Virus genome (UHGV): UHGV-0006788 | DNA: 35,015 bases | Direction: 5' to 3' (one strand) | From: a virus | In this document: piece after piece, positions 2,044 through 31,708 of the stretch | How positions within the stretch are numbered: the first letter of the stretch is position 1 | How the letters are laid out: the number at the start of each line of letters is the position of its first letter | Notes under the pieces: generated by a model | Database searches by the model: none | The model's input: only the letters and a program-made list of their open reading frames with translations | Told to the model about the DNA's origin: nothing | Program-made: the position numbers and the translations under genes

Positions 2044-2124
2044 CGCGAGCACCTCTTCCGGTTTTGTTGATGGTGCCATTTTAGTTAATTTACCCTTATA
2101 AAACAAACAGATAAAAACAAAACA

Positions 2125-3288
2125 TTACTCATCACCTTCTGTTTCGTACTCCACATCAGAAAGCCTGACCTCAAGCTCTAAGGACGTCGTGAAGCCGCTG
2201 TTATTCAGAAAATGTGTCACCTTAGTGATTGTCCAGTCCTGCTCGTCTATGACGCGCTTAAAGCCTGACACTTTAACCGGTGTTTCCGTGTAAATATCTG
2301 CCCGACCGGTAGCCAGGCTGATGGAGAACTCCGCAACGCCCCGTTGCAGTTTATCCCACTTCGCCTGAGCGGCGCGCATGGCCTGCGCTTTCGTGGCATA
2401 TACCGTGGTCAGGGCAAAAACATTGTCAGCCTCACCGGCCATGTATTCACCTTCGCGCGCTTCCGGCGCTTTTGGCGCTTTCTTCTGCGTGACTGGTTTC
2501 GCTTTCGGGTGCTCCAGTGCGCGCAGGTGTTTTTCTTTCTTTTTGCGTTTCAGTTTTACCTTCTGCTTTTGCGGCTTCGGGTCTTTGGTGTGTAACCACT
2601 TTGCCGTTACGCCGGTGTAAGCTCCACGGTCAGCAATCGCAAAATGATGACGGTCGCCGTCGCTGCGGGTGATGGTAATCTGCGGGATTTTTTTACCGCT
2701 GGCCGTCACCCCCTGCCCCGCCTTAAGAAACAACAGTTTTCCCATTTTTACCGACACCTCACCGCCGTTGCGTTCAGCAAGACGGATCAGGAATTTCGCA
2801 TCAGACTCCTGCGACTGGTCGATGTGCGGGATTTTAATTCCGGCCAGTGACGGAGCGACACTGGCCTCCAGCTTGTTACGGGAGGCTATCGCCTCAACAA
2901 TCGCACCGAGCGTGGTGTCATGCCAGGAGCCTTCCCGGCGGGAATTAAGCGTCCCGCGGAAATCTGCACTCCGGGCGCGGATGGTAACCACATCCGGCGC
3001 GCCCCGGTGTTCAACCTCATCAACGGTAAATTTCCCTTTGCATACCAGGGCAAAACCTTTCCAGCCGATATACACCGTCAGGACAGCGCCACGAATCGGT
3101 AGCCCGACCTGCCCGTCGGCGTCGTTCAGTTCAATATCAAGCTGGTCAGCCTCAAAGCCCCGGTTATCCGTCAGGGTCATGCTCATCAGACGGTCGCTGA
3201 TATTGCCGGTAATATCCCTGCTGTCGAGCATCAGCATGTAATCCGGCGTCAGCGTACTGCCTGCATCAAATGTCAGCGCATCCAGCAT
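2125..3288 (-). CDS. D: Tail protein D (P2 gpD family, late control gene D)
   Basis: 387-aa ORF, the same length as P2 gpD, in the expected position between U and ogr. Confidence 0.85.
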   Translation of the reverse strand: MLDALTFDAGSTLTPDYMLMLDSRDITGNISDRLMSMTLTDNRGFEADQLDIELNDADGQVGLPIRGAVLTVYIGWKGFALVCKGKFTVDEVEHRGAPDVVTIRARSADFRGTLNSRREGSWHDTTLGAIVEAIASRNKLEASVAPSLAGIKIPHIDQSQESDAKFLIRLAERNGGEVSVKMGKLLFLKAGQGVTASGKKIPQITITRSDGDRHHFAIADRGAYTGVTAKWLHTKDPKPQKQKVKLKRKKKEKHLRALEHPKAKPVTQKKAPKAPEAREGEYMAGEADNVFALTTVYATKAQAMRAAQAKWDKLQRGVAEFSISLATGRADIYTETPVKVSGFKRVIDEQDWTITKVTHFLNNSGFTTSLELEVRLSDVEYETEGDE

Positions 3289-3767
3289 TATCCCGCCCCC
3301 GTCATACCCGTGAATTTAGTCGCCATACTGCCAGCCTTACCGATGAGCGATTCCGCCTGTTTACCGATATCGCCATAAAGCGCGGCCAGTGATTCATCAA
3401 CGCGGGTGAGCGACAGCGTAAAATCAATTTTCCGGGGTGTGCCGTCTGCAAAGAAAATACTCCCTGTTTCACTCACCTTGCTGATGACATACATGCCGTA
3501 AATCATGCCGGTGCCATCCAGCAACGGCCACGCCCGCCCCTCCTCTGCCATCAGCCTGAGCGTGGTCATCGTCAGCTTGCCGCCGGTCAGTTCGGGATAA
3601 AGCACACCGGCAAGCGTGATGTTTTCCTCACCCACACCGAGAAACTGAAAAGCGTCCCGTTTACCGATACGGGAATTTGACGGCCAGCGATAATCTGATT
3701 CACGCTGCATGGTCTGGTGTGGCAGCGTCTGGCGCATAAAAACAAACATACCTAACGCGAGCATCAT
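3288..3767 (-). CDS. U: Tail protein U (P2 gpU family)
   Basis: 159-aa ORF matching P2 gpU in length and position; its start overlaps the D stop. Confidence 0.85.
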   Translation of the reverse strand: MMLALGMFVFMRQTLPHQTMQRESDYRWPSNSRIGKRDAFQFLGVGEENITLAGVLYPELTGGKLTMTTLRLMAEEGRAWPLLDGTGMIYGMYVISKVSETGSIFFADGTPRKIDFTLSLTRVDESLAALYGDIGKQAESLIGKAGSMATKFTGMTGAG

Positions 3768-3781
3768 TTTTCGTCACCTCC

Positions 3782-6229
3782 TTAACCGTCATGCATCATG
3801 CTGGCACGGGCGCGCGCACGTTTATCCCGCTCGTATTTTTCGAGCGCATCCTGTAACTGGCGGTCGAGCTGTGTCCCCGGCGCAGTACCACCCGTCAGGC
3901 TGATGTGATATTCGTTTTTACTCTGGTCTACATAAGAGCGGCCAGCCGGTGCCGTGACCGGCTGATAAGCCTGATAACCTGCATAAGAGCTGGTCGCCGG
4001 AATATAACCACCGCTGCCATACGTGGCGGCTTGAGTTCTGGCGGCGGTCTGGTCAAGTGTGTCTGACTCTTTGTTGATAACACCGAGTTTTTCCAGTACC
4101 CAGTCAATACCACTGCGCAGTTTGTTGAACGCATTAAGCGGCAGCATCAGCGCGTCAGCCAGTGCCTGCCCGAACATGACGCCCGTGTCACGGCAACGGT
4201 TCAGGGTGTCCTGGGTGGCTTTGACCGGGGCAATCAGGTTTTTAAACCACTGCCACGCGGCCTGTAACTTTTCACCCAGCCAGTCAAACACCGGCTTAAG
4301 TGGCGTGAACAGTTCCCCCACCGGCGCAAATGCCGCTTTCAGCCCTTCCACCACACCGCCAAAGAATGCGCTGACAGGCTCCCAGTATTTACGGATAAGC
4401 AACGCCCCGGCGACAATGGCGGCCACCACGGCCACAACCGGCCAGCTAATAGCCCCGATGGCGGTCATAACAGCACTGCCAACCGTCGTGAAGACTGCCC
4501 CCATTGCGCCTGCTGCCGCGATGATGGCATTGATGCCGGTGATAACCGGCCAGGCTACAAGACCAATGGCACCGATGATGCCAATAAGCGCCAGCGCGCC
4601 ACCGACAATGAGGCCGATGGTTGACGCCAGTGATTTGTTTTTCTGGATCCAGCCGTCGAGTTTTAACACATACTTTGTGGCCGTCTGAGTGAGCTTACGC
4701 AGTGCGCCTTCCTGCTGGTCAAACAGGTCAGTCCCCACTGCCTCATAAGCGGACTGAAACTCTTTAAAGTCACCGCCTAGGTTGTCCTGCATGATATTTA
4801 CCAGCTCGGCGGTCTTCCCGTCTGAGGCTTTAAACGCAGCGGTCAGTTTGTCCAGCTTTCCGGTTGAGGCGGCAGTCATCAGCACGACGGCGGCTGAGCT
4901 GGCCTCCTCCCCGAAAATGGTTTTCATGTATTCAGCCTGCTGGGCAGTACCGAGCCGGTTTTTCTCAAAACTGGCCTGCATTTCTTTCAGAATGGTAAAT
5001 ATTGGCCGGGTGTTTCCCTTGCTGTCTGAGGTTTTCACTCCAAGCTCTTTGAGTGCATCCCATGCTTTTCCCGTCGGTGCCTGCAGGCGGCTTAACACGG
5101 CACGGCTTCCCGTCCCCGCCATTGAGCCTGTGATTTTTGCATCATGCAGCGCCCCGACCATTGCGGCGGTTTCTTCAATGCTGACACCGGCATTTTTTGC
5201 CACAGGTGCGGCATAGGTCAGCGCATCGCTCATGCCGTCAAAATCGGCGGCGGTTTTGTTCATCGTCATGGAGAGAACATCCCCGATATGAGCGACCTTA
5301 TCGTTTGAAAGCTGAAAGGCGGATTTCATCCCCATCAGCAGGGCGGCGTTTTCTTCCATCGCGCGGCGGTTCGCCAGCGCCATATTCAGCGTGACCGGTG
5401 TTGCCGCCTGAATGGCATCAACATCCCCACCCGCTTTCGCGATGATTATCTGTGCACCGGCCGCATCATCCGCTGAGGCGGCGGTATTGTCGCCGAGCTG
5501 GCGCGCCTGTTTGCGGAGCGCGGCCATTTCGGCGGAGTCTTTTGCCACGCCGAGCACAGCCTGTAATTCTGAGTTTTTCTGCGCAAACTCATAACCGGGC
5601 ATCAGCAGCTTAACTCCGGCCATCGTTCCCGCCGCCGCAATCCCCACACCGGCAGCGCCCACTGAGGCCATATTTCCGGCCAGTTCCTTGCCGGCCTGAT
5701 AACGCTGTTTGACTGCGTTAAGTTTTGCCTGTTGCGCACTGACACGCGCCAGTGCGTCACGCTGCCGGTTAAGCTGGGCAGTGGTTTCACTGATACGGTT
5801 TTTCAGTCCCTGCTCATCATGTGCAAGATTGCGGGTATTAATTCCCACAGCGGCCAGTTCCCGCTGCTGGCGTTTAACGGAATCCGTCAGGCGGTTATAT
5901 TTCGCCTGTAAGTCCTCCGCCGCACGCTTTGCGGATTCCAGCACTTTCGCCTGAGCACGGGTCGGACGTTCGGTGTTTTTAAACTGTGTGGCAAGGGCTT
6001 CGGCTTCCTGCCGTGCCTTTTCAAGTGCATGACCAGTCACGGCAAGCTGTGCGCTGGTCTTGCGGAATCCCTCAATACGGGATGCGTGACCGTTCAGCTC
6101 GCGCAGTGATTTTTGTGTTTCCCGGATATCCCCCGACAGCGATTTGCTCGCTGTGCGGATGGATTTAAACGGGCGGGATGCCTGGTCAACAGCCCTGAGC
6201 AATACCTGTAATTTTACATTGTTACTCAT
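3782..6229 (-). CDS. T: Tail tape measure protein (P2 gpT family)
   Basis: 815-aa ORF, the same length as P2 gpT; coiled-coil-rich N-terminal part, Ala/Gly-rich hydrophobic central stretch, position after E/E'. Confidence 0.9.
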   Translation of the reverse strand: MSNNVKLQVLLRAVDQASRPFKSIRTASKSLSGDIRETQKSLRELNGHASRIEGFRKTSAQLAVTGHALEKARQEAEALATQFKNTERPTRAQAKVLESAKRAAEDLQAKYNRLTDSVKRQQRELAAVGINTRNLAHDEQGLKNRISETTAQLNRQRDALARVSAQQAKLNAVKQRYQAGKELAGNMASVGAAGVGIAAAGTMAGVKLLMPGYEFAQKNSELQAVLGVAKDSAEMAALRKQARQLGDNTAASADDAAGAQIIIAKAGGDVDAIQAATPVTLNMALANRRAMEENAALLMGMKSAFQLSNDKVAHIGDVLSMTMNKTAADFDGMSDALTYAAPVAKNAGVSIEETAAMVGALHDAKITGSMAGTGSRAVLSRLQAPTGKAWDALKELGVKTSDSKGNTRPIFTILKEMQASFEKNRLGTAQQAEYMKTIFGEEASSAAVVLMTAASTGKLDKLTAAFKASDGKTAELVNIMQDNLGGDFKEFQSAYEAVGTDLFDQQEGALRKLTQTATKYVLKLDGWIQKNKSLASTIGLIVGGALALIGIIGAIGLVAWPVITGINAIIAAAGAMGAVFTTVGSAVMTAIGAISWPVVAVVAAIVAGALLIRKYWEPVSAFFGGVVEGLKAAFAPVGELFTPLKPVFDWLGEKLQAAWQWFKNLIAPVKATQDTLNRCRDTGVMFGQALADALMLPLNAFNKLRSGIDWVLEKLGVINKESDTLDQTAARTQAATYGSGGYIPATSSYAGYQAYQPVTAPAGRSYVDQSKNEYHISLTGGTAPGTQLDRQLQDALEKYERDKRARARASMMHDG

Positions 6230-6649
6230 TCGTGTTTCCGCTTCGCCGGAGCGCCTTTTCGCGCCATGTGATGAGTTCGGTCAGGCTCATGGGATACAGT
6301 TCTGATGGCGGCCAGTGAAATATCACTGCCACATCTGCCATCAGGTCATCGACCGACAGATTTTTCGGAAACGTCACTGCACCGAGTTCGGCGACAAAAA
6401 ACCGACCACCTTACCGGCCAGCGCCACAAGGTCAGGCAGTTCCAGCGCGGCGACTTCCTGCTCGGTCAGCATCGGTGCCGTCATGCGCGGCAGCACCTTA
6501 ATCAGTGCATCGACTTCGGAGTTTGCAACCGCAGCCAGACTGACACCGCGTAGCGTCCCGGCATTGGGTTTCATCAGCGTGACCTGTTCGATAACCTGCT
6601 CACCACGTTTGACCGGATTGTCCAGGGTAATGACATTTTCTTTGTTCAT
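6222..6649 (-). CDS. E': Tail assembly chaperone E+E' made by programmed -1 ribosomal frameshift
   Basis: Slippery heptamer T TTT TTG on the minus strand (plus 6395..6401) sits eight codons before the E stop. I traced the -1 frame by hand: it stays open to a TAA at 6222..6224, giving a fusion of about 142 aa that overlaps the start of T, as in P2. Confidence 0.7.
6374..6649 (-). CDS. E: Tail assembly chaperone E (P2 gpE family)
   Basis: 91-aa ORF ending ...VVGFLSPNSVQ; the same length as P2 gpE; lies between FII and T. Confidence 0.85.
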   Translation of the reverse strand: MNKENVITLDNPVKRGEQVIEQVTLMKPNAGTLRGVSLAAVANSEVDALIKVLPRMTAPMLTEQEVAALELPDLVALAGKVVGFLSPNSVQ

Positions 6650-6705
6650 GGTTTTCTCACTTCTGAATCAGGGTTAACCGGCCAGCCAGGCTGACCGGAT
6701 GAAAA

Positions 6706-7224
6706 TCACAGGCCGATATTGCGGCGGTGTTGCTCCAGCCGGTCGACGCCGTTCACCTTCTCAATCATGTTGATGGTGTCAATTTCGACCAGCTCCTTAC
6801 CGTCCATCGTCAGCCGGAAATAGGTGCAGACCACGGAGATTTTCGACTCAGTGTCTTCTCCCTGTTTACCCTCGCCGGTGTCGATTTCTTTCTGACGTCC
6901 ACGCATGACCACTTCGACGGCCACCGTTTCGCCGGTATCATCGCGCTGGTAAGAGCCTGCAAAACGAATCGGCACGGCATCCACGCCGGTTGCGGCGTAA
7001 AGCTCCCAGATAACCGAATCCGGGAAGCCCCCGAGCGACCACTCCATTGACAGCGCATCGTCATCAAGGCCGAGGTCTACCGGTGCGCTGCCGTTCATCC
7101 CCGCACCGCGATAGTTTTCGAGCTTACGGGTCAGTTTTGGCAGCGTGACGGACTTTGCAACGCCCTGATAGCTGTAGCCGTTCAGAAAGACGTTCATAAA
7201 CTTGAGTTTGCGCGGCATTGCCAT
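6706..7224 (-). CDS. FII: Major tail tube protein (P2 gpFII family)
   Basis: 172-aa ORF, the same length as P2 gpFII, directly downstream of FI. Confidence 0.9.
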   Translation of the reverse strand: MAMPRKLKFMNVFLNGYSYQGVAKSVTLPKLTRKLENYRGAGMNGSAPVDLGLDDDALSMEWSLGGFPDSVIWELYAATGVDAVPIRFAGSYQRDDTGETVAVEVVMRGRQKEIDTGEGKQGEDTESKISVVCTYFRLTMDGKELVEIDTINMIEKVNGVDRLEQHRRNIGL

Positions 7225-7236
7225 CGGTCAGGCTCC

Positions 7237-8427
7237 TTAATTGCTGTTAACCGAGGTGACCAGATTTGCCAGGTATTTATCGGTAATACGCTGGCGCAGG
7301 GTCAGGTTTTCGAGAGGAGGCACCGGTGTATAGTCGTAGTCGATATACAGTTTTCCGGCCTTGAGGGTTTCCGCATCGTTGGATTCTTCGCTGAACCAGC
7401 AGGTCGCATCCACGATATAGCCGTTTGTTTTCAGCTCACGGAATTTGGCATTGATGCCGTCAACGATGTCGCGAATCAGCGTTGCGGTGATGGGCTTGTC
7501 CACCGCCCACATGTGCGCCTCAGCCATCGTGTCGGCCAGCACCTGCGCGGTGCGTGTGTAGTTTTCAAAGAGAAACAGCGGGTCATCAGAGCAGGTACGG
7601 TTACCCCAGAAGCGGAAACCGTCGCGGCGAATCAGCGTAGTGACGCCTGACTCGTTAAGCAGGTCAGCATCGGTGCCGGACTCCTGCAAATCCCAGAATA
7701 CAGAGGCGCTGATGCCGGTAACACCGTTCACCCCGACGTTGGACAGCGTTTTATGCCAGCCCTGCTCCTGGTCGATTTTAGCGCGCAGACCCAGCGCACG
7801 GGCGGTGGCATACGCGGTGGCAGTGGTACTGGTGACCGTATCCCATGCGAGGAAATCCGGCCAGATGACCATCAGCTCACGCTGGCTGAAATTCTGGCGG
7901 TAGGCTTTCACCTCGGAAATGGTCTTACAGCCCCATGTGCTGATATATCCGAAAGCGCGCAGCTTCTGACAGACGGATGCCAGTGCAACAGCCACCTCTT
8001 TGGTATCCAGCCCCGGCACACCAAGAATACGCGGTTTAACACCGGTTACCGACTCCGCCGCCAGCAGGGCTTTCAGTCCGGTGTACTGACCGTTTTCGTC
8101 GGTGGTTCCGATGATATTGGAAACAGTCTGCGCGAGTTTCGTTTCTTCGTCTTCGCCGGTGCCGTCTTCCACACGCACGACAACGGTGACCGGTTTTGAC
8201 TGGTCGGCGATGGCCTGCAACGATGCCGCCAGCGTGCCTTTTTTACCGGCCTTTGCAATTGCGCTCTGCACATTGGTAATCAGCACCGGTTTATTGAGGG
8301 GGAAGGTTTCCGCATCCGCATCGCTGGCCGTGCAGACCATGCCGACAATGGCAGTGGATACGGTGGAAATGACGCGGGTGCCGTCGTTAATCTCCAGCAC
8401 CTGCACGCCGTGATGATAGTCACTCAT
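7237..8427 (-). CDS. FI: Contractile tail sheath protein (P2 gpFI family)
   Basis: 396-aa ORF, the same length as P2 gpFI; first gene of the FI-FII-E-T-U-D operon. Confidence 0.9.
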   Translation of the reverse strand: MSDYHHGVQVLEINDGTRVISTVSTAIVGMVCTASDADAETFPLNKPVLITNVQSAIAKAGKKGTLAASLQAIADQSKPVTVVVRVEDGTGEDEETKLAQTVSNIIGTTDENGQYTGLKALLAAESVTGVKPRILGVPGLDTKEVAVALASVCQKLRAFGYISTWGCKTISEVKAYRQNFSQRELMVIWPDFLAWDTVTSTTATAYATARALGLRAKIDQEQGWHKTLSNVGVNGVTGISASVFWDLQESGTDADLLNESGVTTLIRRDGFRFWGNRTCSDDPLFLFENYTRTAQVLADTMAEAHMWAVDKPITATLIRDIVDGINAKFRELKTNGYIVDATCWFSEESNDAETLKAGKLYIDYDYTPVPPLENLTLRQRITDKYLANLVTSVNSN

Positions 8428-8520
8428 CCGTTTAACTCCGTGGTTAATGGGTGCAACTATTTTCTGTTGGGCAGAGCATGAGACGCTATTTGACCTGGCT
8501 GGTCAGTGGATGAAACAACA

Positions 8521-8551
8521 GATAAAGAAAAGGCGGGCAATTCGCCCGCCT
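8521..8551 (-). terminator. Putative intrinsic terminator insulating the FI operon from the upstream cargo island
   Basis: Stem ggcgggc / gcccgcc (8532..8538 and 8544..8550) with a short loop; on the minus strand the hairpin is followed by a U-rich tract (reverse complement of gataaagaaa). Confidence 0.4.
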
Positions 8552-8850
8552 GTCCTGATTTGTACTCACTCATTTTCCGCCTGACAATTTACATAGCCCA
8601 AATGCTATCAAATCTGACAGTCTGCTTTGAGCGAGAAACGGACGTTATAGATAGTGTGTTAAGGTTTTCTCTTTAATTGCAATGTCATATCCTCAACGAC
8701 CAAGTAGTGACATTTTTCGTTATTATATGGTATTGTGTTAGAATTAATTTATTGATGCGAAATCATTCAAAGCTTCATTGGTACTTATATTTAACTTATA
8801 ATCTTAATTAAAGAATTTCTTATTTTTAGATATTTTTATGCAAATACTTA

Positions 8851-9603
8851 ATGAAAGGAGGCATAAATTTGGATACTAACAGTCCATTAATTGAAGTCGA
8901 GCAGAACACTTCAGACATATATATTCCGTTGCAAGCCTGGTTCGAGGGGAGAAAATTCCTTTCACACAGATTTTCGGGCCAAAACTGTAGTGATAATCCA
9001 TCAAGTGATTGGGAGGCTTGGTTATCAATACAGGAATGCTGTCCTCTCCATCAGGTCAATAGTCTTAACTGGGTCGGACTGCATGAAGCTAGGAAAAATA
9101 CAGATTCATTCTTGGGGAATGTGAAGAGTGAATTTAATGGAAAGCTTCCCATTTTTATTCATGAAAAGGAGAGGGTGATAATCGAAAAAAAAATCGGCAT
9201 TCCTCCCAAACCCTCATTACCAATCTATTTAATATCATGCTCTGATATGGATGATACCAATGAACACATTGTTTATGTCGGAAAAACCGTTAACTCCAAA
9301 AGGTTTATTGGCGGTCACTCGGCTGCCTTAAAGTTGCTAGATCCCAAATATAATAATATGAAAAAGAGGATATATAGAGCCACCCCATGGTTTTATGATG
9401 GAAAAGACTATATTTCACTGGATTGGATTAGTCCGACATCATTAGCTATAGAATTACTTGACTTTATAGAGTCTCATCTTATTTACAATCTCAAGCCGGA
9501 ACTCAACACATCGAAGAAAAAAAATGAAGATACACGTTATTCTTTTTATCTTCACATTCAGAACTTTTTATCAACAGGCTTTCTTAATGATGAGTTTATT
9601 TAA
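8851..9603 (+). CDS. Cargo protein with a putative GIY-YIG-type nuclease domain
   Basis: 250-aa ORF in a visibly AT-rich island. The segment PIYLISCSDMDDTNEHIVYVGKTVNSKRFIGGH has the GIY...YIG spacing and the following Arg/His seen in GIY-YIG nucleases such as I-TevI and UvrC. The AAAGGAGG Shine-Dalgarno sits inside the annotated first codons, so the true start may be the in-frame TTG at 8869. Confidence 0.6.
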   Translation: MKGGINLDTNSPLIEVEQNTSDIYIPLQAWFEGRKFLSHRFSGQNCSDNPSSDWEAWLSIQECCPLHQVNSLNWVGLHEARKNTDSFLGNVKSEFNGKLPIFIHEKERVIIEKKIGIPPKPSLPIYLISCSDMDDTNEHIVYVGKTVNSKRFIGGHSAALKLLDPKYNNMKKRIYRATPWFYDGKDYISLDWISPTSLAIELLDFIESHLIYNLKPELNTSKKKNEDTRYSFYLHIQNFLSTGFLNDEFI

Positions 9604-9639
9604 TATCATTACTTATTAACATAGTAGAGATTAAACTAC

Positions 9640-9704
9640 GTCCGCTCCTGGCAAGCAGCGGACATTGCTGGCTGAGTTGAGGGTCCGCTGTGAGCGAGGA
9701 GCGG
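9640..9704. repeat. Pair of palindromic hairpin elements with arms GTCCGCT / AGCGGAC
   Basis: gtccgct-cctggcaagc-agcggac (9640..9663) and tccgct-gtgagcgagg-agcgga (9684..9704), between the two convergent cargo genes. A related palindrome occurs at 11786..11809. Confidence 0.5.
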
Positions 9705-9978
9705 AAGTTCAAAATTTTTCATAACGACTGATGAGAACAACACTAATTTTCGAACTTACTGGTACAAAAAATTTCCATAATCTTATAAAAAGTGGGGGAG
9801 TCAGTATGGTTCAATATTTGAAATACTACTTGTTTATGTTGAGAAAATTTTAAGCTTGACCTGGTTACCAGATTACAGCCGATCAACACCTAGACATCGA
9901 AACTTAGAGGTACCTCTGCTTTCAGGCATACTTAGAGGTCTATGTCTAAACCACCCGCTATGCAGGTGGTTGATTTAC

Positions 9979-11514
9979 CTAATTCGGCCTTGCTTGAATA
10001 GCAGACTCTATAGCTGCTCGGAATTCCGGGGCATCAGTTCTTAATCGATAATCATCAAGGGTATTGAATATTTCTAGAAGTTCTCTACGATAATGCGGCG
10101 GTGCTGAATTACCTTCGCCTCTAGTGGTGAAAATTAATAATGAGTCAGCGACGTCTTTTAATTTTTTATTCCTTTTCAACCTAATATAACAAGATACAAC
10201 TATATCAAGAATATGCTTTCTAGATTTCAAGGTGAGTTTATTATTAGGCATAACCAACTGCAGCATAGCACCAAGTAATTTGGTAGCCTCTTTTGAAATA
10301 TAATGAAGATCGAAATTATCTATTTCTTTATTTTCTTGAGGAATCTCCTTTTCATCTATCCATTCGCATTGTTCTGCCCAATCTGTAGCGACGCTAAATA
10401 AATGACAGAGAAGGAAGTGAAAAGGTGTTTCCCATTCACCACTATATTCATCTGATTGCCTATTCATATTCTTTATAATTTTCCTTGCGAAATATGAATA
10501 GTAATGCAACCATAAATGATCCTGAAGACCCTGGTGAATACCTTCATGAACCATAATTTCAAACAGCGTGACACCTGAGTAAATAGGACATTTATATTTT
10601 GAAGCATCGTAATAGGAACCTAAAGACTTATTAAGTGCAGCAATAATTTTTTCATCTTCATCTAACCTCCAGTAGAGATAGTCACCGATATCACGGTATA
10701 TTGCTAAATCAGCTGCAAACTTAGCATTGGAAAAGAAAAAATGTAATATACGGTTGTTTTTTGGAATCAATAAACGATGTCCTCGACTAACGTTAAGATT
10801 ATTTTTAAGCTCAACATATAGACGACTGTTAGGTGAACCAAGTAATGCACTGATAAAATTAGAAGTAAAGTCAGAACGAACTATTGGCTCGATCTTGATT
10901 AACTCAAGGCAGAGGGATGGGTGCGCAAGTGCAAAGTGATTGGTAAGTTCAGGTGATGAGACAATATTTAACAATGCTTCATGTGCATGTTCAGCAGCTG
11001 TCTCGCGATTAGAGATGCGGAGATTGTTAGCTATCTTATCACAAAGTCGATTCTTCACAGGTCTATCAATTATTGATATTAATTTTTCTAGTTGAGGTGC
11101 CAACAATTGTGCCAGATCGTCGTATCGTTTAGTAAGGTGCAAATTTTCCACTAACTCTAGAAATATCCCTGTTCTTCCAATTGAGAGTTTAGGGTTTTTT
11201 AAGCGAAATAAAATGTAAATAGCAACTGCGAGTGATATCAGGTATACGGCACTTGAACTATCTAATCCCCATTTCCAGGGGCCAAAGCTAAAATATAAGT
11301 CTAGTGATTTTAAAGCCGGTGCAAACACCAAATAATTGCTTAGTAAGAATGCAAACCCAACAATTACCCAATCCCACCACGCTAGGCAGAACCTTAAACG
11401 TAGTCGAGCGTTTGGCGTAATAAGGGCCCATACAGCAGCAATAACGCCCAATATGGTAAGTAGACTTGATGTATCAATTTTGGTTGGCGGTGTCATAATT
11501 TCTCTTGTAATCAT
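9979..11514 (-). CDS. Cargo protein, membrane-anchored (hydrophobic N-terminal segments), function unknown
   Basis: 511-aa ORF in the AT-rich island; the first ~110 residues hold several hydrophobic stretches (LLTILGVIAAVWALI, WDWVIVGFAFLLSNYLVFAPAL, AVYLISLAVAIYILF), followed by a ~400-aa soluble region with no motif I recognise. Confidence 0.65.
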   Translation of the reverse strand: MITREIMTPPTKIDTSSLLTILGVIAAVWALITPNARLRLRFCLAWWDWVIVGFAFLLSNYLVFAPALKSLDLYFSFGPWKWGLDSSSAVYLISLAVAIYILFRLKNPKLSIGRTGIFLELVENLHLTKRYDDLAQLLAPQLEKLISIIDRPVKNRLCDKIANNLRISNRETAAEHAHEALLNIVSSPELTNHFALAHPSLCLELIKIEPIVRSDFTSNFISALLGSPNSRLYVELKNNLNVSRGHRLLIPKNNRILHFFFSNAKFAADLAIYRDIGDYLYWRLDEDEKIIAALNKSLGSYYDASKYKCPIYSGVTLFEIMVHEGIHQGLQDHLWLHYYSYFARKIIKNMNRQSDEYSGEWETPFHFLLCHLFSVATDWAEQCEWIDEKEIPQENKEIDNFDLHYISKEATKLLGAMLQLVMPNNKLTLKSRKHILDIVVSCYIRLKRNKKLKDVADSLLIFTTRGEGNSAPPHYRRELLEIFNTLDDYRLRTDAPEFRAAIESAIQARPN

Positions 11515-11785
11515 TGTTTGATGTACATCGGAATGGTTTCAAATGATAAGGCTCTGTGTATGATAAATCAGAACGTTATGCACGTTTAAGAATACCCTCA
11601 AAATGGCACATTTTAATCTAAAAATGGCATTAAATGGACACTACTTGTCCACACAAGTTTTTTTCAGTCGGCTTTTCCCGACTAACGTTTGGGGTGTCCT
11701 ATTGAAACTACGCTCCTTATAAAAGCAATACTGTAGCTGTATGTTTATCAAAGGGGTTGTGCTAACCAAATTACTGAAGCCTAAG

Positions 11786-11809
11786 GTCCGCTCTTGGCAC
11801 AGAGCGGAC
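11786..11809. repeat. Palindromic hairpin related to the 9640..9704 elements
   Basis: gtccgctct-tggcac-agagcggac, a 9-bp perfect stem; the loop-proximal ggcacagag can alternatively pair with ctctgtgcc at 11827..11835. Lies between the cargo island and the stop of G. Confidence 0.5.
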
Positions 11810-11870
11810 TGTCAGATCAGGCTTTACTCTGTGCCATAGATATGTAAGCTCACACCAGAGCTCATACAAC

Positions 11871-12398
11871 TTATTGTGGCATTTTCGGCCATTCGGGATT
11901 TGCAGGATCCACACGGCTGACCAGAACACTGTAGCGTTCCCATGCTTCCAGTCGGCTATGCTCCTCATCTGTTGCCATGTTCAGCCTGACAGCGCGCTCC
12001 AGTGGCTGAATAACGCTTTCCGCTTCGGAAAGTAACGCGGCCTTTTGTGATTCTGTCTGTTGTTGCTGTTCGTCTGCCGTATAAATCCGCTTAATCACGG
12101 CACCATCCTTAAACATCCATTTACCTGAGTCATCAGCACGTCGGTTGGCGGTAATATCAGGAACCTCGACAACGCTAAAACCTTCAGGGTTAAGCGTTGA
12201 AGCATCTCTGGTGATGCCGACAATTATATTATTCTCGTCGTAAACAATCTTTATCGTGTCTTCCTGAAAATTACTTACTTCCTCATACCAGTTTTTTCCG
12301 TCTTCGGACCATAACCAGATAACATCAAAATTTTTTGTCAGTTGATATTGAGCAACAGTTTTTGGATTACCCGCAGTAATATTTTTTAAATGCTGCAT
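11871..12398 (-). CDS. G: Tail fiber assembly chaperone (P2 gpG family)
   Basis: 175-aa ORF, the same length as P2 gpG, immediately downstream of the tail fiber gene H. Confidence 0.85.
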
Positions 12399-23358: not shown

Positions 23359-25131
23359 ATGACCATCACCACAGACACCACTCTTTTACACGACCCGCGT
23401 CGTCAGGCGGCGCTGCTGTACTGGCAGGGGTTTTCCGTGCCGCAGATTGCCGCCATGTTGCAGATGAAACGCCCGACGGTGCAGAGCTGGAAACAGCGCG
23501 ACGGCTGGGACAGCGTTGCTCCCATCAGCCGTGTCGAAATGAGTCTGGAAGCGCGGCTGACCCAGCTCATCATAAAACCGCAGAAAACAGGCGGTGACTT
23601 CAAGGAAATTGACCTGCTCGGACGCCAGATTGAACGACTGGCACGGGTAAACCGCTACAACCAGACCGGCAACGAGGCAGACCTTAATCCGAACATCGCT
23701 AACCGCAACAAAGGCGGGCGGCGCAAACCGAAAAAGAATTTTTTCAGCGACGAGGCTATCGAAAAGCTGGAGCAGATTTTCTTTGAGCAGTCTTTCGAAT
23801 ATCAGTTGCACTGGTATCGCGCCGGGCTTGAGCACCGCATCCGCGATATCCTGAAATCCCGCCAGATTGGCGCGACGTTTTATTTTTCCCGCGAGGCGCT
23901 GCTGCGCGCCCTGAAAACCGGTCATAACCAGATTTTTCTGTCGGCCAGTAAAACGCAGGCGTATGTGTTCCGCGAATACATCATCGCCTTTGCCCGGCTG
24001 GTTGACGTTGACCTGACCGGTGACCCGATTGTCCTGGGCAATAACGGCGCAAAACTGATTTTTCTCGGCACCAACTCCAACACCGCACAGAGCCATAACG
24101 GCGACCTGTACGTCGACGAGATTTTCTGGATCCCGAATTTTCAGGTACTGCGTAAGGTGGCATCAGGTATGGCCTCACAGAGTCACCTGCGCTCGACCTA
24201 TTTCTCCACCCCGTCCACGCTGGCGCACGACGCCTACCCGTTCTGGTCGGGTGAACTGTTCAACCGGGGACGCGCCAGCGCCGCCGAACGCGTGGAAATC
24301 GACGTCAGTCATAACGCCCTTGCCGGTGGGCTTCTCTGTGCGGACGGCCAGTGGCGACAGATTGTCACCATTGAGGACGCCCTGAAAGGCGGCTGCACGC
24401 TGTTCGACATTGAGCAGCTCAAACGCGAAAACAGCGCCGACGATTTTAAAAACCTGTTCATGTGTGAATTTGTTGACGACAAGGCATCGGTGTTCCCGTT
24501 CGAGGAGCTGCAACGCTGCATGGTCGACACGCTGGAAGAATGGGAAGACTATGCGCCGTTTGCCGCCAATCCGTTCGGCTCCCGCCCGGTATGGATTGGT
24601 TACGACCCGTCACACCGTGGCGACAGCGCCGGATGCGTGGTACTGGCACCGCCGGTGGTGGCCGGTGGCAAATTCAGAATACTTGAGCGTCACCAGTGGA
24701 AAGGCATGGACTTTGCCACCCAGGCGGAATCCATCCGCAAACTCACCGAAAAATACAACGTCGAATACATCGGGATTGATGCCACCGGCCTCGGTGTCGG
24801 CGTGTTCCAGCTCGTGCGCTCGTTCTATCCCGCCGCGCGCGATATCCGCTACACGCCGGAAATGAAAACTGCAATGGTGCTCAAGGCAAAAGACGTTATC
24901 CGCCGTGGCTGTCTGGAATATGACGTCAGCGCCACCGACATCACCAGCTCGTTTATGGCTATCCGCAAGACCATGACCAGCAGCGGACGCAGCGCCACCT
25001 ATGAGGCCAGCCGCAGCGAGGAAGCCAGCCACGCCGACCTCGCCTGGGCGACCATGCACGCCCTGTTAAATGAGCCACTCACCGCCGGTATCAGCACCCC
25101 GCTGACATCCACCATTCTGGAGTTTTACTGA
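23359..25131 (+). CDS. P: Terminase large (ATPase) subunit (P2 gpP family)
   Basis: 590-aa product starting MTITTDTTLLHDPRRQAALLYWQGFSV; the track ORF begins 10 codons upstream. The stop overlaps the Q start (TGATG). Confidence 0.9.
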   Translation: MTITTDTTLLHDPRRQAALLYWQGFSVPQIAAMLQMKRPTVQSWKQRDGWDSVAPISRVEMSLEARLTQLIIKPQKTGGDFKEIDLLGRQIERLARVNRYNQTGNEADLNPNIANRNKGGRRKPKKNFFSDEAIEKLEQIFFEQSFEYQLHWYRAGLEHRIRDILKSRQIGATFYFSREALLRALKTGHNQIFLSASKTQAYVFREYIIAFARLVDVDLTGDPIVLGNNGAKLIFLGTNSNTAQSHNGDLYVDEIFWIPNFQVLRKVASGMASQSHLRSTYFSTPSTLAHDAYPFWSGELFNRGRASAAERVEIDVSHNALAGGLLCADGQWRQIVTIEDALKGGCTLFDIEQLKRENSADDFKNLFMCEFVDDKASVFPFEELQRCMVDTLEEWEDYAPFAANPFGSRPVWIGYDPSHRGDSAGCVVLAPPVVAGGKFRILERHQWKGMDFATQAESIRKLTEKYNVEYIGIDATGLGVGVFQLVRSFYPAARDIRYTPEMKTAMVLKAKDVIRRGCLEYDVSATDITSSFMAIRKTMTSSGRSATYEASRSEEASHADLAWATMHALLNEPLTAGISTPLTSTILEFY

Positions 25132-26159
25132 TGAGCAAGAAAAAAGGGAAAACACCGCAACCTGCGGCAAAAACAATGACCGCCAGCGCCCCGAAAATGG
25201 AGGCATTCACCTTTGGTGAGCCGGTGCCGGTACTCGACCGCCGTGACATTCTGGATTACGTCGAGTGCATCAGTAACGGCAGATGGTATGAGCCGCCGGT
25301 CAGCTTTACCGGTCTGGCAAAAAGCCTGCGTGCTGCCGTACATCACAGCTCACCGATTTACGTCAAACGTAATATTCTGGCTTCAACGTTTATTCCGCAC
25401 CCGTGGCTTTCCCAGCAGGATTTCAGCCGCTTTGTGCTGGATTTTCTGGTGTTCGGTAATGCGTTTCTGGAAAAGCGCTACAGCACCACCGGTAAGGTCA
25501 TCAGACTGGAAACCTCACCGGCAAAATATACCCGCCGTGGCGTGGAGGAGGATGTTTACTGGTGGGTGCCGTCCTTCAACGAGCCGACACCTTTCGCGCC
25601 CGGCTCCGTGTTTCACCTGCTGGAGCCGGATATTAATCAGGAGCTGTACGGTCTGCCGGAATATCTCAGCGCCCTTAACTCTGCCTGGCTGAATGAGTCG
25701 GCCACGCTGTTCCGCCGCAAGTATTACGAAAACGGCGCACATGCCGGATACATCATGTACGTCACCGATGCCGTGCAGGATCGCAACGATATCGAAATGC
25801 TTCGCGAAAACATGGTGAAGTCGAAAGGCCGCAACAACTTTAAAAATCTGTTTCTCTATGCCCCGCAGGGGAAAGCCGACGGCATTAAAATTATCCCGCT
25901 CAGTGAAGTGGCAACGAAGGACGATTTTTTTAATATCAAAAAAGCCAGCGCCGCTGACCTGCTGGACGCGCACCGCATCCCCTTTCAGTTGATGGGCGGC
26001 AAGCAGGAGAACGTCGGGTCGCTGGGTGATATTGAGAAAGTGGCAAAGGTCTTTGTCCGCAATGAGCTTATCCCGCTACAGGACAGGATCCGCGAGATAA
26101 ACGGCTGGCTCGGTCAGGAGGTCATCCGCTTTAAAGATTACAGTCTAGAATCTAATTAA
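25131..26159 (+). CDS. Q: Portal protein (P2 gpQ family)
   Basis: 342-aa ORF (P2 gpQ is about 344 aa), translationally coupled to P and reading toward cos. Confidence 0.85.
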   Translation: MSKKKGKTPQPAAKTMTASAPKMEAFTFGEPVPVLDRRDILDYVECISNGRWYEPPVSFTGLAKSLRAAVHHSSPIYVKRNILASTFIPHPWLSQQDFSRFVLDFLVFGNAFLEKRYSTTGKVIRLETSPAKYTRRGVEEDVYWWVPSFNEPTPFAPGSVFHLLEPDINQELYGLPEYLSALNSAWLNESATLFRRKYYENGAHAGYIMYVTDAVQDRNDIEMLRENMVKSKGRNNFKNLFLYAPQGKADGIKIIPLSEVATKDDFFNIKKASAADLLDAHRIPFQLMGGKQENVGSLGDIEKVAKVFVRNELIPLQDRIREINGWLGQEVIRFKDYSLESN

Positions 26160-26254: not shown

Positions 26255-26944
26255 TCAATCTTTAACTTCAATATATGAAGAAGAAAACCATATAGATTTT
26301 TTCCCATTTATGTATTTAGAAACAGGCGAGCCATCTTCGTTCATTGCCTCAGCACTAAATGTTACATAATACATTCCTTTTTCTTTTGTCGAAACAAGAT
26401 AGTTCAAGCGTCTTTCGGCAGAGATAGGAACGGATATATCATATAAAGGTATATTTTTAGCTTTTCCTTGCGAGCTACTTTCTTCATTAAGAACAGCCAA
26501 CTCCTCATAATAATTTGGATAAAAAACTTCCGTAGCGACTTGCTTTGCACCGGCCGATAAAACACGACTAACAGCAAGGGACTTGTTATTAAGCTTCACA
26601 TAAATTCGCTCATTACTGTTATTCCTAATAGTCACAATAGGCTTTATATAAAACACATCATCGATTTTAACAACATTAACGTCAACATTAAAAAATGTCG
26701 ATTCTGTATTTCTAATTCTATTTCTTAACTCTATAAGATCAGCTTCTGCCTTATCCCTTTGGTGCAAAACATCAAAAGTATATCCTCCCCACACAAGTGT
26801 CAAAACAGCGCACAATGACATCACGACGTTATTAAACTGATCGTGTGTTCTGTAAATATCTTTGAATTTTAAAATTAATAATAGACATGCTATGAATAGC
26901 ATGCCTATTATCAGCCAGTGTTCTTTTACAAATTCAAAGTTCAT
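26255..26944 (-). CDS. Cargo protein, predicted small membrane protein (candidate effector), function unknown
   Basis: 229-aa ORF in a visibly AT-rich island; hydrophobic N-terminal segments (WLIIGMLFIACLLLIL and VVMSLCAVLTLVWGGYTF) followed by a soluble domain; its start codon lies 2 nt after the stop of the upstream 366-aa gene. Confidence 0.65.
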   Translation of the reverse strand: MNFEFVKEHWLIIGMLFIACLLLILKFKDIYRTHDQFNNVVMSLCAVLTLVWGGYTFDVLHQRDKAEADLIELRNRIRNTESTFFNVDVNVVKIDDVFYIKPIVTIRNNSNERIYVKLNNKSLAVSRVLSAGAKQVATEVFYPNYYEELAVLNEESSSQGKAKNIPLYDISVPISAERRLNYLVSTKEKGMYYVTFSAEAMNEDGSPVSKYINGKKSIWFSSSYIEVKD

Positions 26945-26946
26945 AG

Positions 26947-28047
26947 TTAGTCACTCGCATGCCTCGCATCACCATCTTCAGGGAAATTGATCCCCTGTCC
27001 GATCTCACGGTTCGTTGGACGAGCAGAAACAAAGCCTCTATTTTGTCTTTTTAAACGCAACTCTAGAACTTGAGAAACTCTATCAAAGTTTAATCCATCC
27101 ATTGCAACCTCTTTTTTCCCTTCAATATGAGATCGAAGTTCCTCACTTATACGATTATCAACCGTTGAAGCGAAGGCTACATCATGATTAAAAATGGCCC
27201 CCATAATTAACATAAACGCAATTCCGGCCTTTCTATTATTTGTTTTAAATTGTAGCCAAACATCCCCCGGAGACATCAACATTTGTTGAGCAGTCAAGGA
27301 TAACTCTCCATTATTAGAAAGTCTTTCCATCTCAAACTGAACAACTTCGTTTGTATACTCGCCATCAAACTCTTCGCCAATTAATAGCGCAAGTACCTGC
27401 ACTCTATCGACCAGCTCAGCCAGCTGCTTAAGAGTATGATGCCGAATGGCTTCTGCTTGCTCGACTCTTAAGCTAGTACAGAAAATATTATCCGTTATAA
27501 AGAATGACATTAACCAATGCAGTACTTCTTCTGACTTCCCGCCCAAAGAGAATACGGTCTGGTATGCAGTAAACGATTTCTGAAGAGCTAATGGAATCTC
27601 TCGTCTGCGAACTGGCTCTCCCCATGTGACTCTACGTCTTACATGAAACCCTTCATTATTACCTAAACATTCACGCTCAAAATACGCGGAAGATGCAATA
27701 ACTCCAGGAACAACCATATCACCTGACAAAGTGAAAACAACATCACCGACCTGCATATCTATGAGGAAATTTTCAATTTGGGTATGAATATTTCTTGAAC
27801 CAATAGTATCTAACCCATCAACCTTTTGATTAATATTTTCATGGTTAATTTCATCATTAAAGTCAATTTGATCTGGACTTAACCTATCCAAGTGAGCAGT
27901 AGCAACCATATTGCATTCAAGGAAGTCTGCAAAATATCTATACTTAATCCCAGGTCTAACGACCCAACACTTTACATTTAAATCAACATGTTGTACTGAA
28001 ATAGCTCTTTGTGATGAAGTTCCAAGCATAGCTGATCCATAATTCAA
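26947..28047 (-). CDS. Cargo protein, function unknown (first gene of a two-gene operon between Q and cos)
   Basis: 366-aa ORF in the AT-rich island with no motif I recognise; weak or no Shine-Dalgarno before the first ATG, and an alternative start at Met7 is possible. Confidence 0.65.
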   Translation of the reverse strand: MNYGSAMLGTSSQRAISVQHVDLNVKCWVVRPGIKYRYFADFLECNMVATAHLDRLSPDQIDFNDEINHENINQKVDGLDTIGSRNIHTQIENFLIDMQVGDVVFTLSGDMVVPGVIASSAYFERECLGNNEGFHVRRRVTWGEPVRRREIPLALQKSFTAYQTVFSLGGKSEEVLHWLMSFFITDNIFCTSLRVEQAEAIRHHTLKQLAELVDRVQVLALLIGEEFDGEYTNEVVQFEMERLSNNGELSLTAQQMLMSPGDVWLQFKTNNRKAGIAFMLIMGAIFNHDVAFASTVDNRISEELRSHIEGKKEVAMDGLNFDRVSQVLELRLKRQNRGFVSARPTNREIGQGINFPEDGDARHASD

Positions 28048-29166: not shown

Positions 29167-31443
29167 TCAAATGGGTAACGAGAACCCCGGCCACTCATCA
29201 GCAACCGGATACGTGAATTTTTTCCCGTCATAATTTACGGTCGCGCCACGCGCCAGCGCCTCAAGCTCCCATCGTTGCGGCCTGATACCGTTCTGAGCGA
29301 GGTCAACGCGGATACGGGTAATTTGCAATCGTTCAGACCTGGTCAGTCTGGCAGATGGTGCAATTTCATGCGGTTTTAACGGGATTCCGTTTCTTTGCTG
29401 ACGGTTTGGTGTTCTCAGGTCGTGTTTTAATGCGCCCCTGAGCGCCCTCACGACCTCCGTGTCATTCCATTCGATAACACCGTCATCAACCAGATTAAGC
29501 ACTGCTGCGGCGTGTTCAGAAGGTGTGGGAGCCGGTAACGAAGTATCACCACCGGTGAGCTTTCCACAGTTATTGACAGGACTCCGAGGCGCGGCGATGC
29601 CGCTTTTTAAAGTCAAAGGCTCAACGACCGGAACTTTCGGCACAATGCGCCAGTCCGTCGTTCTGGTGATATGAATATGACGCGCGCCGAGATGCGGCGC
29701 GTAAATGCCGACCACTCTCTCGACTTCTTCCTCGTACTCGTTAACTTCATCCGACGGGCTACGGGCGACTCTGACAGTCTGACAATCGCGCGGGACATTT
29801 GCCCCACCCTGCGCGCTGATATACAACGCAAAATCACCACTGTCTGCGGCGGCGCGTGCAGCCTCGACGCGCTCGTCAAACTCATCAGCAATGCTGACGC
29901 CGCGCGGCAATTTGCGTAGTTCACGGTAAGCCCCCATTGTCGGCAGGCCAACCGTTTTAAATTGCGGGATGCGCCACGTTGACGCCCATGCGGTAACAGC
30001 CGCTGCAGTGTCTTTCAGCGGCCTGCCGGTGTCGTTATCGAGCTGACCATCCAGTGCATAGCCGTCGATGTTTTTTGAAATGTATTTCGCGATATATCCC
30101 GCAGCACCGCCCCGGTTAAGGTGTTTTGCCTGAAAACGGTTTCGCGCGGCTCCTCTTTCGTCGCCATCCTCTTTGAGCGCATAGCGACGCATGATTTCGA
30201 TAATCTGGTTACGCTGGCGTGGATTACAAAAAAGCATCATATGCCAGTGCGGCGTTCCGTCGTGGTGTGGCTCGACGACACGCAAACCGTAGACCTGTAA
30301 ATCATTATCCTTGAATGCCGTGCGCATCAGGCTCCAGATACGGCAGAGATAACGCTGCGCATCCTTTGGATTAAATGCCTCATCATTCCAGCCGTGATTA
30401 AGCTGGACGGTTTTATTTTCGCCTTTTCCGACCTGACGTGTCGGGTGATACTTTGACGGCGCGGTAAGCGTGATAAACATCCCCACATCACCCTCTGCGG
30501 CGGCGTAACGCTCAATACCGGCAATGGTGTTCATCAGCTCCATCCGGCGAATTTCAGGATTAGAAATACTGCCCATCACCTTACTGATAAGGTCGATGCG
30601 CTCGCCGGTTTCCCTGTTTTCAAGGTCACACGATTTAAGAAATTCCAGATTTGCCTGGCGGCGCGCACGCACATCACGAATGGCATGTTTACTGGCATAA
30701 GGTGAACGGTCTTTATTGACCTCCCCGACAGCAATCAGTAACGCCTCATGCCAGCGCATACGCTGGCCTTTAAGCTGACTAATCCACCACTCATCGTTAA
30801 ACAGGCGGGCAATGGCAGAATATGCCTGCCTCGTGGTCATCTGCCCTTTACGGTATTTTCTCCAGTAAAGCGGGGAAATATTGAAAGCACGTGCAGCGCC
30901 AGCAACATGACCATACAGGTGAGCCTGCGCCTCATCCGTAAACAGCGATTCTTTTTCGCCATGCGCATCCACCCAGGCATCGCAGAGTTCCTCATACATC
31001 ATGAAAAGCTGCGATGAGATTCGGGCGGCAAACTTTTTCAGCTCCTTGTCATTCATCCCCGGCAGGCGCGCATACTGGTCGCGCTCTGCCAGAAACAGCA
31101 ACGACGCGTCGGTGTTCATTTCATGGCGCTGATTCACGCGCTCAATGCGCGGCCATAAACGACGCTGAAAAGTGGATGTGAGGAAATAAAACCCGTGCAC
31201 CGGGCTTTTATTGCGCCGGATGTAGTCATAGCGTGAAGTAAACAGCGAGCGCAAAAAGTAAGGCAGGCGGTTAATCGTGGATAAAACACCTTGCACCTGA
31301 CGCATCTCGTCACGTGTAAGGGGTCTTTCGCGCCCGACGGCCTCGCGTGGCGCGTTCCATGCATAAGCACCGGTAAACGTCTTACCGGTGCCTGCGGCAA
31401 ATGCTGACGGAGGGACAAAACGCCCGGAGGCTTTAACGGCCAT
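29167..31443 (-). CDS. A: Replication initiation protein A (rolling-circle nickase, P2 gpA family)
   Basis: Product MAVKASGRFVPPSAFAAGTGK... of about 758 aa; P2 gpA is about 761 aa. The track ORF is extended 14 codons upstream; the exact start is uncertain. Confidence 0.85.
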   Translation of the reverse strand: MAVKASGRFVPPSAFAAGTGKTFTGAYAWNAPREAVGRERPLTRDEMRQVQGVLSTINRLPYFLRSLFTSRYDYIRRNKSPVHGFYFLTSTFQRRLWPRIERVNQRHEMNTDASLLFLAERDQYARLPGMNDKELKKFAARISSQLFMMYEELCDAWVDAHGEKESLFTDEAQAHLYGHVAGAARAFNISPLYWRKYRKGQMTTRQAYSAIARLFNDEWWISQLKGQRMRWHEALLIAVGEVNKDRSPYASKHAIRDVRARRQANLEFLKSCDLENRETGERIDLISKVMGSISNPEIRRMELMNTIAGIERYAAAEGDVGMFITLTAPSKYHPTRQVGKGENKTVQLNHGWNDEAFNPKDAQRYLCRIWSLMRTAFKDNDLQVYGLRVVEPHHDGTPHWHMMLFCNPRQRNQIIEIMRRYALKEDGDERGAARNRFQAKHLNRGGAAGYIAKYISKNIDGYALDGQLDNDTGRPLKDTAAAVTAWASTWRIPQFKTVGLPTMGAYRELRKLPRGVSIADEFDERVEAARAAADSGDFALYISAQGGANVPRDCQTVRVARSPSDEVNEYEEEVERVVGIYAPHLGARHIHITRTTDWRIVPKVPVVEPLTLKSGIAAPRSPVNNCGKLTGGDTSLPAPTPSEHAAAVLNLVDDGVIEWNDTEVVRALRGALKHDLRTPNRQQRNGIPLKPHEIAPSARLTRSERLQITRIRVDLAQNGIRPQRWELEALARGATVNYDGKKFTYPVADEWPGFSLPI

Positions 31444-31708
31444 ATGAGCCAAAAGCCTCTGAACAACGCTTGCTGAGTTGCTCAACCTGCGCGTTTAAAT
31501 CAGCAAAAGACTTTGCGCTTCCGGTCAGAATATCGTGATGCATCAGGCCGGAAACGAGCTGGCTTAATTTCGGGTAATAACCAACCACCGCCAGCCATTC
31601 CTGACCGGCGTTTTTACCGCTTTCAGCTCTCTTTTTCTCGTGGAGAATAAACTGAAAGCTGTCACTGGTAACGACATAACGTTCGCCAATTTCAATACGA
31701 ATACTCAT
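31433..31708 (-). CDS. Small early-operon protein (P2 orf83-like), function unknown
   Basis: 91-aa ORF immediately upstream of and slightly overlapping A, in the position of the small early ORFs of P2. Confidence 0.6.
   Translation of the reverse strand: MSIRIEIGERYVVTSDSFQFILHEKKRAESGKNAGQEWLAVVGYYPKLSQLVSGLMHHDILTGSAKSFADLNAQVEQLSKRCSEAFGSYGR

Follow-up and report, generated by a model that had tools for sequence, protein, structure and literature searches.

The window analysed here, the whole 35,015-nucleotide sequence of the virus genome UHGV-0006788, is a P2-type prophage of Escherichia coli. In its Z/fun cargo slot, between the tail sheath gene FI and the tail-fibre assembly gene G, it carries a gene whose product we interpret as a stand-alone, highly divergent GIY-YIG DNA endonuclease, which is carried as lysogenic-conversion cargo and most likely protects the lysogen against phages or invading DNA; we give this reading a probability of roughly 0.55. 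That the protein is a GIY-YIG nuclease is highly probable, and that the gene is a defence gene is rather probable. The family is unannotated and new, within the known class of single-protein nuclease defence genes of prophage hotspots.

Protein family and GIY-YIG assignment

GIY-YIG nucleases are defined, from I-TevI, UvrC, and Eco29kI, by two tyrosines, a glycine, an arginine, a helix histidine, a metal-binding glutamate, and a downstream asparagine, with the GIY and YIG motifs lying 10-27 residues from each other on successive strands and the arginine about 10 residues after YIG, followed by a histidine or tyrosine on the next helix. In the protein studied here (residues are numbered throughout in the 250-aa form from ATG 8851), the motifs read P-I-Y126 and Y142-V-G144 and fall on strands at 125-131 and 139-145 of the structural model, while R151 follows Y142 at a spacing of 9 residues (10 in the Bacillaceae members). 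Across 32 diverse family members, Y126, Y142, G144, R151, F152, G155, H156, K172, E207, and N219 are invariant, and hhalign, which aligned the family with T4 endonuclease II (EndoII) at E 2.5e-5, sets E207 and N219 on E118 and N130 of that enzyme. The EndoII query sequence corresponds to PDB entry 2wsh apart from the E118A mutation of the latter, and the fact that 2wsh is an E118A mutant confirms the position of the metal-binding glutamate. Furthermore, the family alignment gave a confident AlphaFold2 model (pLDDT, the predicted local distance difference test, 89; pTM, the predicted template modelling score, 0.85), which shows the GIY-YIG alpha/beta fold. The GIY...YIG...R...H match pointed out in an earlier, sequence-only reading of this DNA is therefore borne out by the full catalytic set (Y126, Y142, R151, H156, E207, and N219), including the arginine and glutamate that it had proposed to check, and the structure prediction it had called for agrees.

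Among 5.8 billion proteins, 85 homologues were found, most of them 226-250 aa long and with about 90% query coverage, originating from Proteus, Dickeya, Pseudomonas, Acinetobacter, Burkholderia, Halodesulfovibrio, Microbulbifer, and several Bacillaceae. An exhaustive profile search of 1.84 billion cluster representatives yielded only 249 clusters at E<=0.001, nearly all of which share the same full-length architecture. The family is small but widely scattered (Proteobacteria and Bacillaceae), and its members from distant proteobacterial classes are still about 50% identical, with strong purifying conservation over the whole length. Because of the 85 homologues and the catalytic residues that are invariant in 32 members, we do not regard the motif as a product of chance; the family appears to be a genuine but very divergent, borderline branch of the GIY-YIG nucleases.

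The nuclease domain is C-terminal, reaching to within about 20 residues of the protein end. The first ~118 residues, which the sequence-only reading had described as being of unknown type, are conserved family-wide and have no Pfam match and no match to a solved fold beyond a weak similarity to DUF1778. The best match of the N-terminal profile among PDB sequences was a DUF1778 (TacA-type ribbon-helix-helix) antitoxin at a non-significant E of 0.028, and hhalign against DUF1778 gave a weak probability of 42% over 66 columns, including a common L..(R/E)(D/E)...I.E.L..PP.P segment; we treat this likeness as a hypothesis only. In antitoxins of this TacA-like type, a strand-helix-helix core precedes an L..(R/E)D...I.E.L.NPP.P motif. 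The N-terminal region is predicted to be packed onto the core of the nuclease along its ~118 residues, and it is probably a specificity, oligomerisation, or regulatory module. Ten distant relatives (P0177, P0179, P0217, P0220-P0222, P0226, P0229, P0230, and P0234; 267-318 aa) have only the nuclease domain in common with the family, and in their differing N-termini neither an informative domain nor a Pfam match was found. It therefore seems that the nuclease module has been recombined with other N-terminal regions.

The open reading frame (ORF) at 8851-9603 (+), reported as encoding 250 aa, is present in the ORF list as claimed, and the peptide PIYLISCSDMDDTNEHIVYVGKTVNSKRFIGGH corresponds to its residues 124-156. 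Its start, however, needs correction: the true start is probably TTG 8869, giving 244 aa, rather than ATG 8851, because a Shine-Dalgarno sequence (Table 1) lies 7 nt upstream of it, RefSeq WP_001471804.1 starts there, and the N-termini of close homologues read MDTN or MDND. No comparable Shine-Dalgarno sequence was seen in front of ATG 8851.

Genomic contexts and the hairpin-bounded cargo slot

Twelve genomic contexts of the family were examined, and nine of them are mobile elements or defence neighbourhoods. Besides the P2 Z/fun slot of the window, these comprise an E. coli-type island adjoining a P4-type integrase (L021); a Proteus lambdoid prophage, where the gene lies beside SIR2 and a STAND NTPase; an Acinetobacter Tn7-like transposon that carries the gene as cargo, with Shedu or DUF3800 alongside; a Peribacillus element with Mrr in the vicinity; a Halodesulfovibrio integrative and conjugative element (ICE), beside Thoeris; a Microbulbifer integrase island, near a type I restriction-modification (RM) system; a Dickeya contig with type IV secretion genes; and a Virgibacillus locus, beside a Gabija-like pair of an OLD-TOPRIM ATPase and a UvrD helicase. 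Defence genes (SIR2-STAND, Shedu, Thoeris, Gabija, and RM) are thus often found beside the homologues. No neighbouring gene is conserved across the twelve loci, which argues that the gene acts alone. Moreover, no methyltransferase is encoded in the cassette or, at 11 of the 12 loci, directly adjacent to the gene (the exception being Microbulbifer, whose type I RM system is a separate one at a distance of about 2.5 kb), and no immunity gene accompanies the nuclease gene in any of the twelve contexts.

At two loci, from Pseudomonas protegens (L006, 8888-9217) and from a betaproteobacterium (L024, 8812-9213), a GNAT acetyltransferase is encoded directly downstream on the same strand. While this adjacency is curious beside the weak likeness of the N-terminal region to DUF1778, an antitoxin of GNAT toxins, it may be a coincidence. 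A toxin-antitoxin link built on these two hints was considered and dropped, as the two GNATs are mutually unrelated and absent at the other ten loci.

Six complete E. coli chromosomes match the window at 99.9-100% identity over 8400-11900. Between FI and G lies an island of 3.4 kb with two convergent genes, whose GC content of 0.35-0.39 (over 8501-11500) compares with about 0.55-0.59 in the flanking tail genes. Since the island flanks align with the GenBank "P2 proviral Z-region" records AJ512683 and AJ512676, its position is that of the Z/fun cargo slot, in agreement with the sequence-only reading, which had described the gene as AT-rich and as sitting exactly there. This slot is an established defence hotspot (PMC13586616), to which three systems from Vassallo et al. 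map (PMC9519451). The sigma-70-like promoter candidate upstream of the gene is weak, as it stems from a consensus scan in which shuffled sequences gave more sites than the real sequence; it is directed away from the late tail operon, in the same orientation as the promoter-bearing ORF1 annotated in P2-EC58.

Table 1. Features in and around the Z/fun slot of the window, in order of position.
Feature	Position	Strand	Basis or remark
Tail sheath gene FI	7237-8427	-	RefSeq annotation; left flank of the island
Intrinsic terminator	8531-8551	-	Scan; 9-bp GC-rich stem, then T run; P2 backbone, between cargo slot and FI promoter region
Left boundary hairpin, type A, degenerate	8612-8647		Inverted repeat I1, within conserved P2 inverted repeat; AJ512683/AJ512676 alignment
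Sigma-70-like promoter candidate (weak)	8707-8736	+	GTGACA, 18-nt spacer, TATTGT, extended -10 TG
Shine-Dalgarno AAGGAGG	8855-8861	+	Read from the sequence
GIY-YIG family protein, coding sequence (probable start)	8869-9603	+	ORF list, RefSeq coordinates, homologue N-termini, sequence read
Conserved N-terminal region	8908-9201	+	Residues ~20-117; mainly helical, one strand at 55-65
GIY-YIG nuclease domain	9202-9540	+	Residues ~118-230; Y126, Y142-V-G144, R151, H156, E207, N219
Type B hairpin closing the nuclease cassette	9638-9663		Identity block shared with L021 runs 8610-9709
Type A hairpin opening the 511-aa cassette	9683-9708		19 nt past the type B site; L002/L003 identity begins here
511-aa gene	9979-11514	-	Separate cassette; hydrophobic N-terminal segments
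Right boundary hairpin, type B	11782-11817		DNA hairpin -12.9 kcal/mol, z -4.4
Tail-fibre assembly gene G	11871-12398	-	RefSeq annotation; right flank of the island

The island consists of cassettes whose boundaries are conserved palindromic sites of two types, type A (GTCCGCT-[GT]TGAGCGAGGA-GCGGA, with the loop TGAGCGAG) and type B (GTCCGCT-C[CT]TGGCAC..-AGCGGAC, with the loop TGGCAC), in the order A, nuclease gene, B, 19-nt spacer, A, 511-aa gene, B. The site pattern occurs 5 times, compared to 0.02 occurrences expected by chance, and the sites fold strongly as single strands. The Z-region records deposited in GenBank in 2004 annotate "left/right inverted repeats" that include the outer sites, and different P2 phages diverge in sequence immediately inside these sites. 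A hairpin-bounded cassette structure of the Z locus was reportedly, and probably, already described by Nilsson et al. in 2004.

The second gene of the island encodes a 511-aa protein whose N-terminus suggests a membrane protein. Its only match was phrog_13820; no Pfam or PADLOC match was found, and NCBIfam gave only noise far under the curated cut-offs. The corresponding cassette is about 99% identical in non-P2 E. coli islands without the nuclease gene, where identity starts exactly at the A site and ends exactly at the B site, and the gene itself shows 74% DNA identity in Klebsiella phage-plasmid records. We regard it as a second candidate defence gene in the slot. A partnership of the two genes was rejected, since each is found without the other and other cassettes part them in L021. 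The latter island, in which the sites were followed over 2064-7039 (as well as in L022 and L023), contains the cassettes of both the nuclease (98% identical) and the 511-aa gene (99.5%), and between them A/B-bounded extra cargo (a DUF6615 gene and a 135-aa ORF) that begins at the B-A junction.

Of 5426 complete E. coli genomes, 590 contain this B-A junction at a coverage of at least 80%, CFT073 and Nissle among them. In CFT073 and STEC316, the islands with the junction also encode a 200-aa "site-specific integrase" (WP_001305361.1). Near the nuclease homologues outside E. coli, from seven other genera, no hairpin sites were found. In E. coli, the nuclease gene is passive cargo of a cassette exchange by which non-nuclease genes are moved as well.

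A further AT-rich stretch of the window, at 26255-28047 (-) between the portal gene (25131-26159) and gpA (29167-31485), corresponds to the old/tin position, the second of the classical hotspots of P2. It contains two ORFs, one of 366 aa that matches the PADLOC candidate family PDC-S02 (E 4e-12) and one of 229 aa for which no matches were found.

Proposed function and its alternatives

Because its orientation opposes the late operon, as does that of ORF1 in P2-EC58, the nuclease gene is expected to be expressed from the lysogen, where it would be transcribed from its own promoter in the direction opposite to the late tail operon. Its product would then cut foreign DNA by the usual one-metal GIY-YIG chemistry. 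As no methyltransferase accompanies the gene, self DNA must be spared otherwise. The nuclease could recognise modified bases or some other property by which phage DNA differs, in the manner of the type IV enzyme CMoRE/PD-T4-3, or it could be kept inactive by autoinhibition until infection and thus act as an abortive-infection nuclease; the N-terminal module would probably set the specificity or regulate the activity. We tentatively consider a new single-gene immune nuclease in which a novel N-terminal sensing or dimerisation module, possibly derived from a ribbon-helix-helix antitoxin, gates the GIY-YIG site, with a mode of discrimination unlike that of methylation-based RM systems or CMoRE. 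A self/non-self discrimination that depends on DNA modification appears rather unlikely.

Comparison with known systems places the protein outside each of them. P2 Fun(Z) occupies the same G-FI slot within the same bounding inverted repeats and is likewise a gene of the lysogenic-conversion type, but there is no detectable homology: a tblastn search with the nuclease against 50,697 phage records, P2 genomes included, gave no match, so that the nuclease is not a Fun(Z) homologue, a possibility the sequence-only reading had set out as a test. Type II enzymes such as Eco29kI and Cfr42I have a cognate methyltransferase, whereas the nuclease described here lacks one and is, for that reason, not considered an RM enzyme of this type. 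T4 endonuclease II (DenA), to which sequence similarity is marginal, is an enzyme of a lytic phage that degrades unmodified host DNA while T4 DNA with hydroxymethylcytosine is spared; in contrast, the present gene is cargo of prophages, transposons, and ICEs that is expressed in the host, and its product has an unrelated N-terminal extension of ~118 residues. The single-gene type IV enzyme CMoRE combines an N-terminal GIY-YIG (GIYxY-YIG) nuclease with a C-terminal modified-cytosine sensor (PMC12923530). Compared to CMoRE/PD-T4-3 (9u75), the domain order is reversed here and the motif, PIYLIS, lacks the second tyrosine; likewise, neither a PADLOC match to PD-T4-3 nor any sequence-level relationship with it was found. 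Membership in PD-T4-3/CMoRE, PD-Lambda-1, or Uzume was rejected altogether, because no PADLOC model matches the protein or any of the 32 members. The version used, PADLOC-DB 2.0.0, presumably includes models for PD-T4-3, PD-Lambda-1, and Uzume.

Several observations weigh against our reading. With respect to the fold, the Pfam profile PF01541, which the sequence-only reading had named as a check, did match residues 125-161, yet at 14.9 bits and thus under its cut-off of 22.6, and PF20815 matched residues 186-228 at 13.1 bits (cut-off 22.4). In favour of the assignment, these sub-threshold matches cover complementary parts of the nuclease domain; 22 of the 32 members match PF20815 and 17 match PF01541, and two homologues, P0017 (23.3 bits) and P0060 (24.0 bits), are just above the PF20815 cut-off, with P0060 reaching 21.8 bits on PF01541. 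The alignment to I-TevI, proposed in the same reading, failed, as hhalign with the nuclease-domain alignment gave a probability of 0.8%. In addition, Foldseek with the full model found nothing in the PDB below E 0.1, and family profiles (full length or nuclease domain only) searched against all PDB sequences retrieved spurious matches such as haemoglobin and RNase H (E ~0.45) but not a single GIY-YIG chain. With respect to function, PADLOC gave no match at E<=1 for the nuclease and none for its 31 relatives, NCBIfam gave no match for the nuclease, the PHROGs matches were restricted to families of "unknown function", no known modification-reading domain was detected in the protein, and the literature yielded nothing on the accession or on any tested homologue. 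Three of the twelve contexts (Pseudomonas protegens, a betaproteobacterium, and Neptuniibacter) look ordinary chromosomal, and the gene is rare, as only 6 of the 5426 complete E. coli genomes have it, always within the same island. Finally, some E. coli-type alleles (L021 2313-3062; P0002, P0003, and P0005; 91-92% identical) are frameshifted after the catalytic asparagine, which replaces the conserved C-terminal HIQNF...FLND segment, and may be inactivated.

Among the alternatives, the best supported, which we nevertheless deem unlikely, is a toxin-type nuclease that is kept inactive, for example by its N-terminal region or oligomeric state, until infection, when it would attack the DNA of host and phage indiscriminately and thereby kill the cell. 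Such an enzyme would also serve defence, through cell suicide instead of restriction. This reading would fit the lack of a methyltransferase or immunity gene in the twelve contexts and the weak resemblance of the N-terminal region to an antitoxin, and CMoRE sets a precedent, as this GIY-YIG defence enzyme is autoinhibited and becomes toxic once its inhibitory loop is removed (PMC12923530). On the other hand, neither a trigger nor a sensor domain could be recognised, the likeness to DUF1778 falls short of significance, and abortive infection and direct restriction are indistinguishable by sequence.

It is still less probable that the protein is a housekeeping nuclease of the cell or of a mobile element, serving repair, recombination, or plasmid/ICE biology without an immune role, or that the gene is a decaying passenger. 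The three contexts without mobile or defence neighbours, the frameshifted alleles, and the rarity in E. coli can be read in this way. However, the purifying conservation over the full length at about 50% identity across distant proteobacterial classes and the predominance of mobile elements and defence neighbourhoods, with 9 of the 12 contexts, argue against this reading.

The sequence-only reading, whose nuclease assignment and slot position are supported, had also offered a free-standing homing endonuclease that invaded the FI-G region; such an enzyme would spread by cutting P2 genomes without the gene, and we consider this alternative very improbable. In homing enzymes of the I-TevI, Seg, and I-BmoI type, the nuclease is N-terminal and linked to a DNA-binding module at the C-terminus, whereas the nuclease is C-terminal here and Pfam showed no NUMOD, IENR1, or helix-turn-helix module; the I-TevI comparison and the phage-record search described above were negative as well. 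Nor does the distribution follow a presence or absence at one locus: the insertion sites of homologues, within a lambdoid prophage, a Tn7-like element, an ICE, and integrase islands, are unrelated to one another, and the mobile unit in E. coli is a cassette bounded by the same hairpins as non-nuclease cassettes, others of which are inserted at the same junction in L021. As the gene is passive cargo of this exchange, homing is not needed as an explanation.

SLX1 and UvrC are structure-specific GIY-YIG enzymes, and the cassette is flanked by strongly folding palindromic sites, so that a structure-specific nuclease acting on these hairpins (cruciforms) and helping to mobilise hotspot cassettes might be imagined; this is the remotest of the alternatives, because the B-A junction outnumbers the gene about 100-fold, the 511-aa cassette occurs without the gene, and no such sites were found near the homologues from seven other genera.

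Implications for P2 hotspots and GIY-YIG defence

If confirmed, the proposed defence nuclease would represent a fourth, architecturally distinct single-gene GIY-YIG defence family beside PD-T4-3/CMoRE, PD-Lambda-1, and Uzume. While its class is the one expected for a P2 hotspot, the reversed architecture of the family is unusual. As the family is compact (~240 aa), comprises only some 250 clusters at 50% identity, and escapes detection by PADLOC-DB 2.0.0, it offers a cheap and well-defined candidate for phage challenge and possibly a new DNA-recognition tool. Furthermore, the anatomy of the cassettes bears on a point raised by a 2026 Nucleic Acids Research study of P2/P4 hotspots, namely how defence genes get swapped: the swap points observed here coincide exactly with conserved hairpin sites, which provides a useful lead on the exchange of hotspot cargo.
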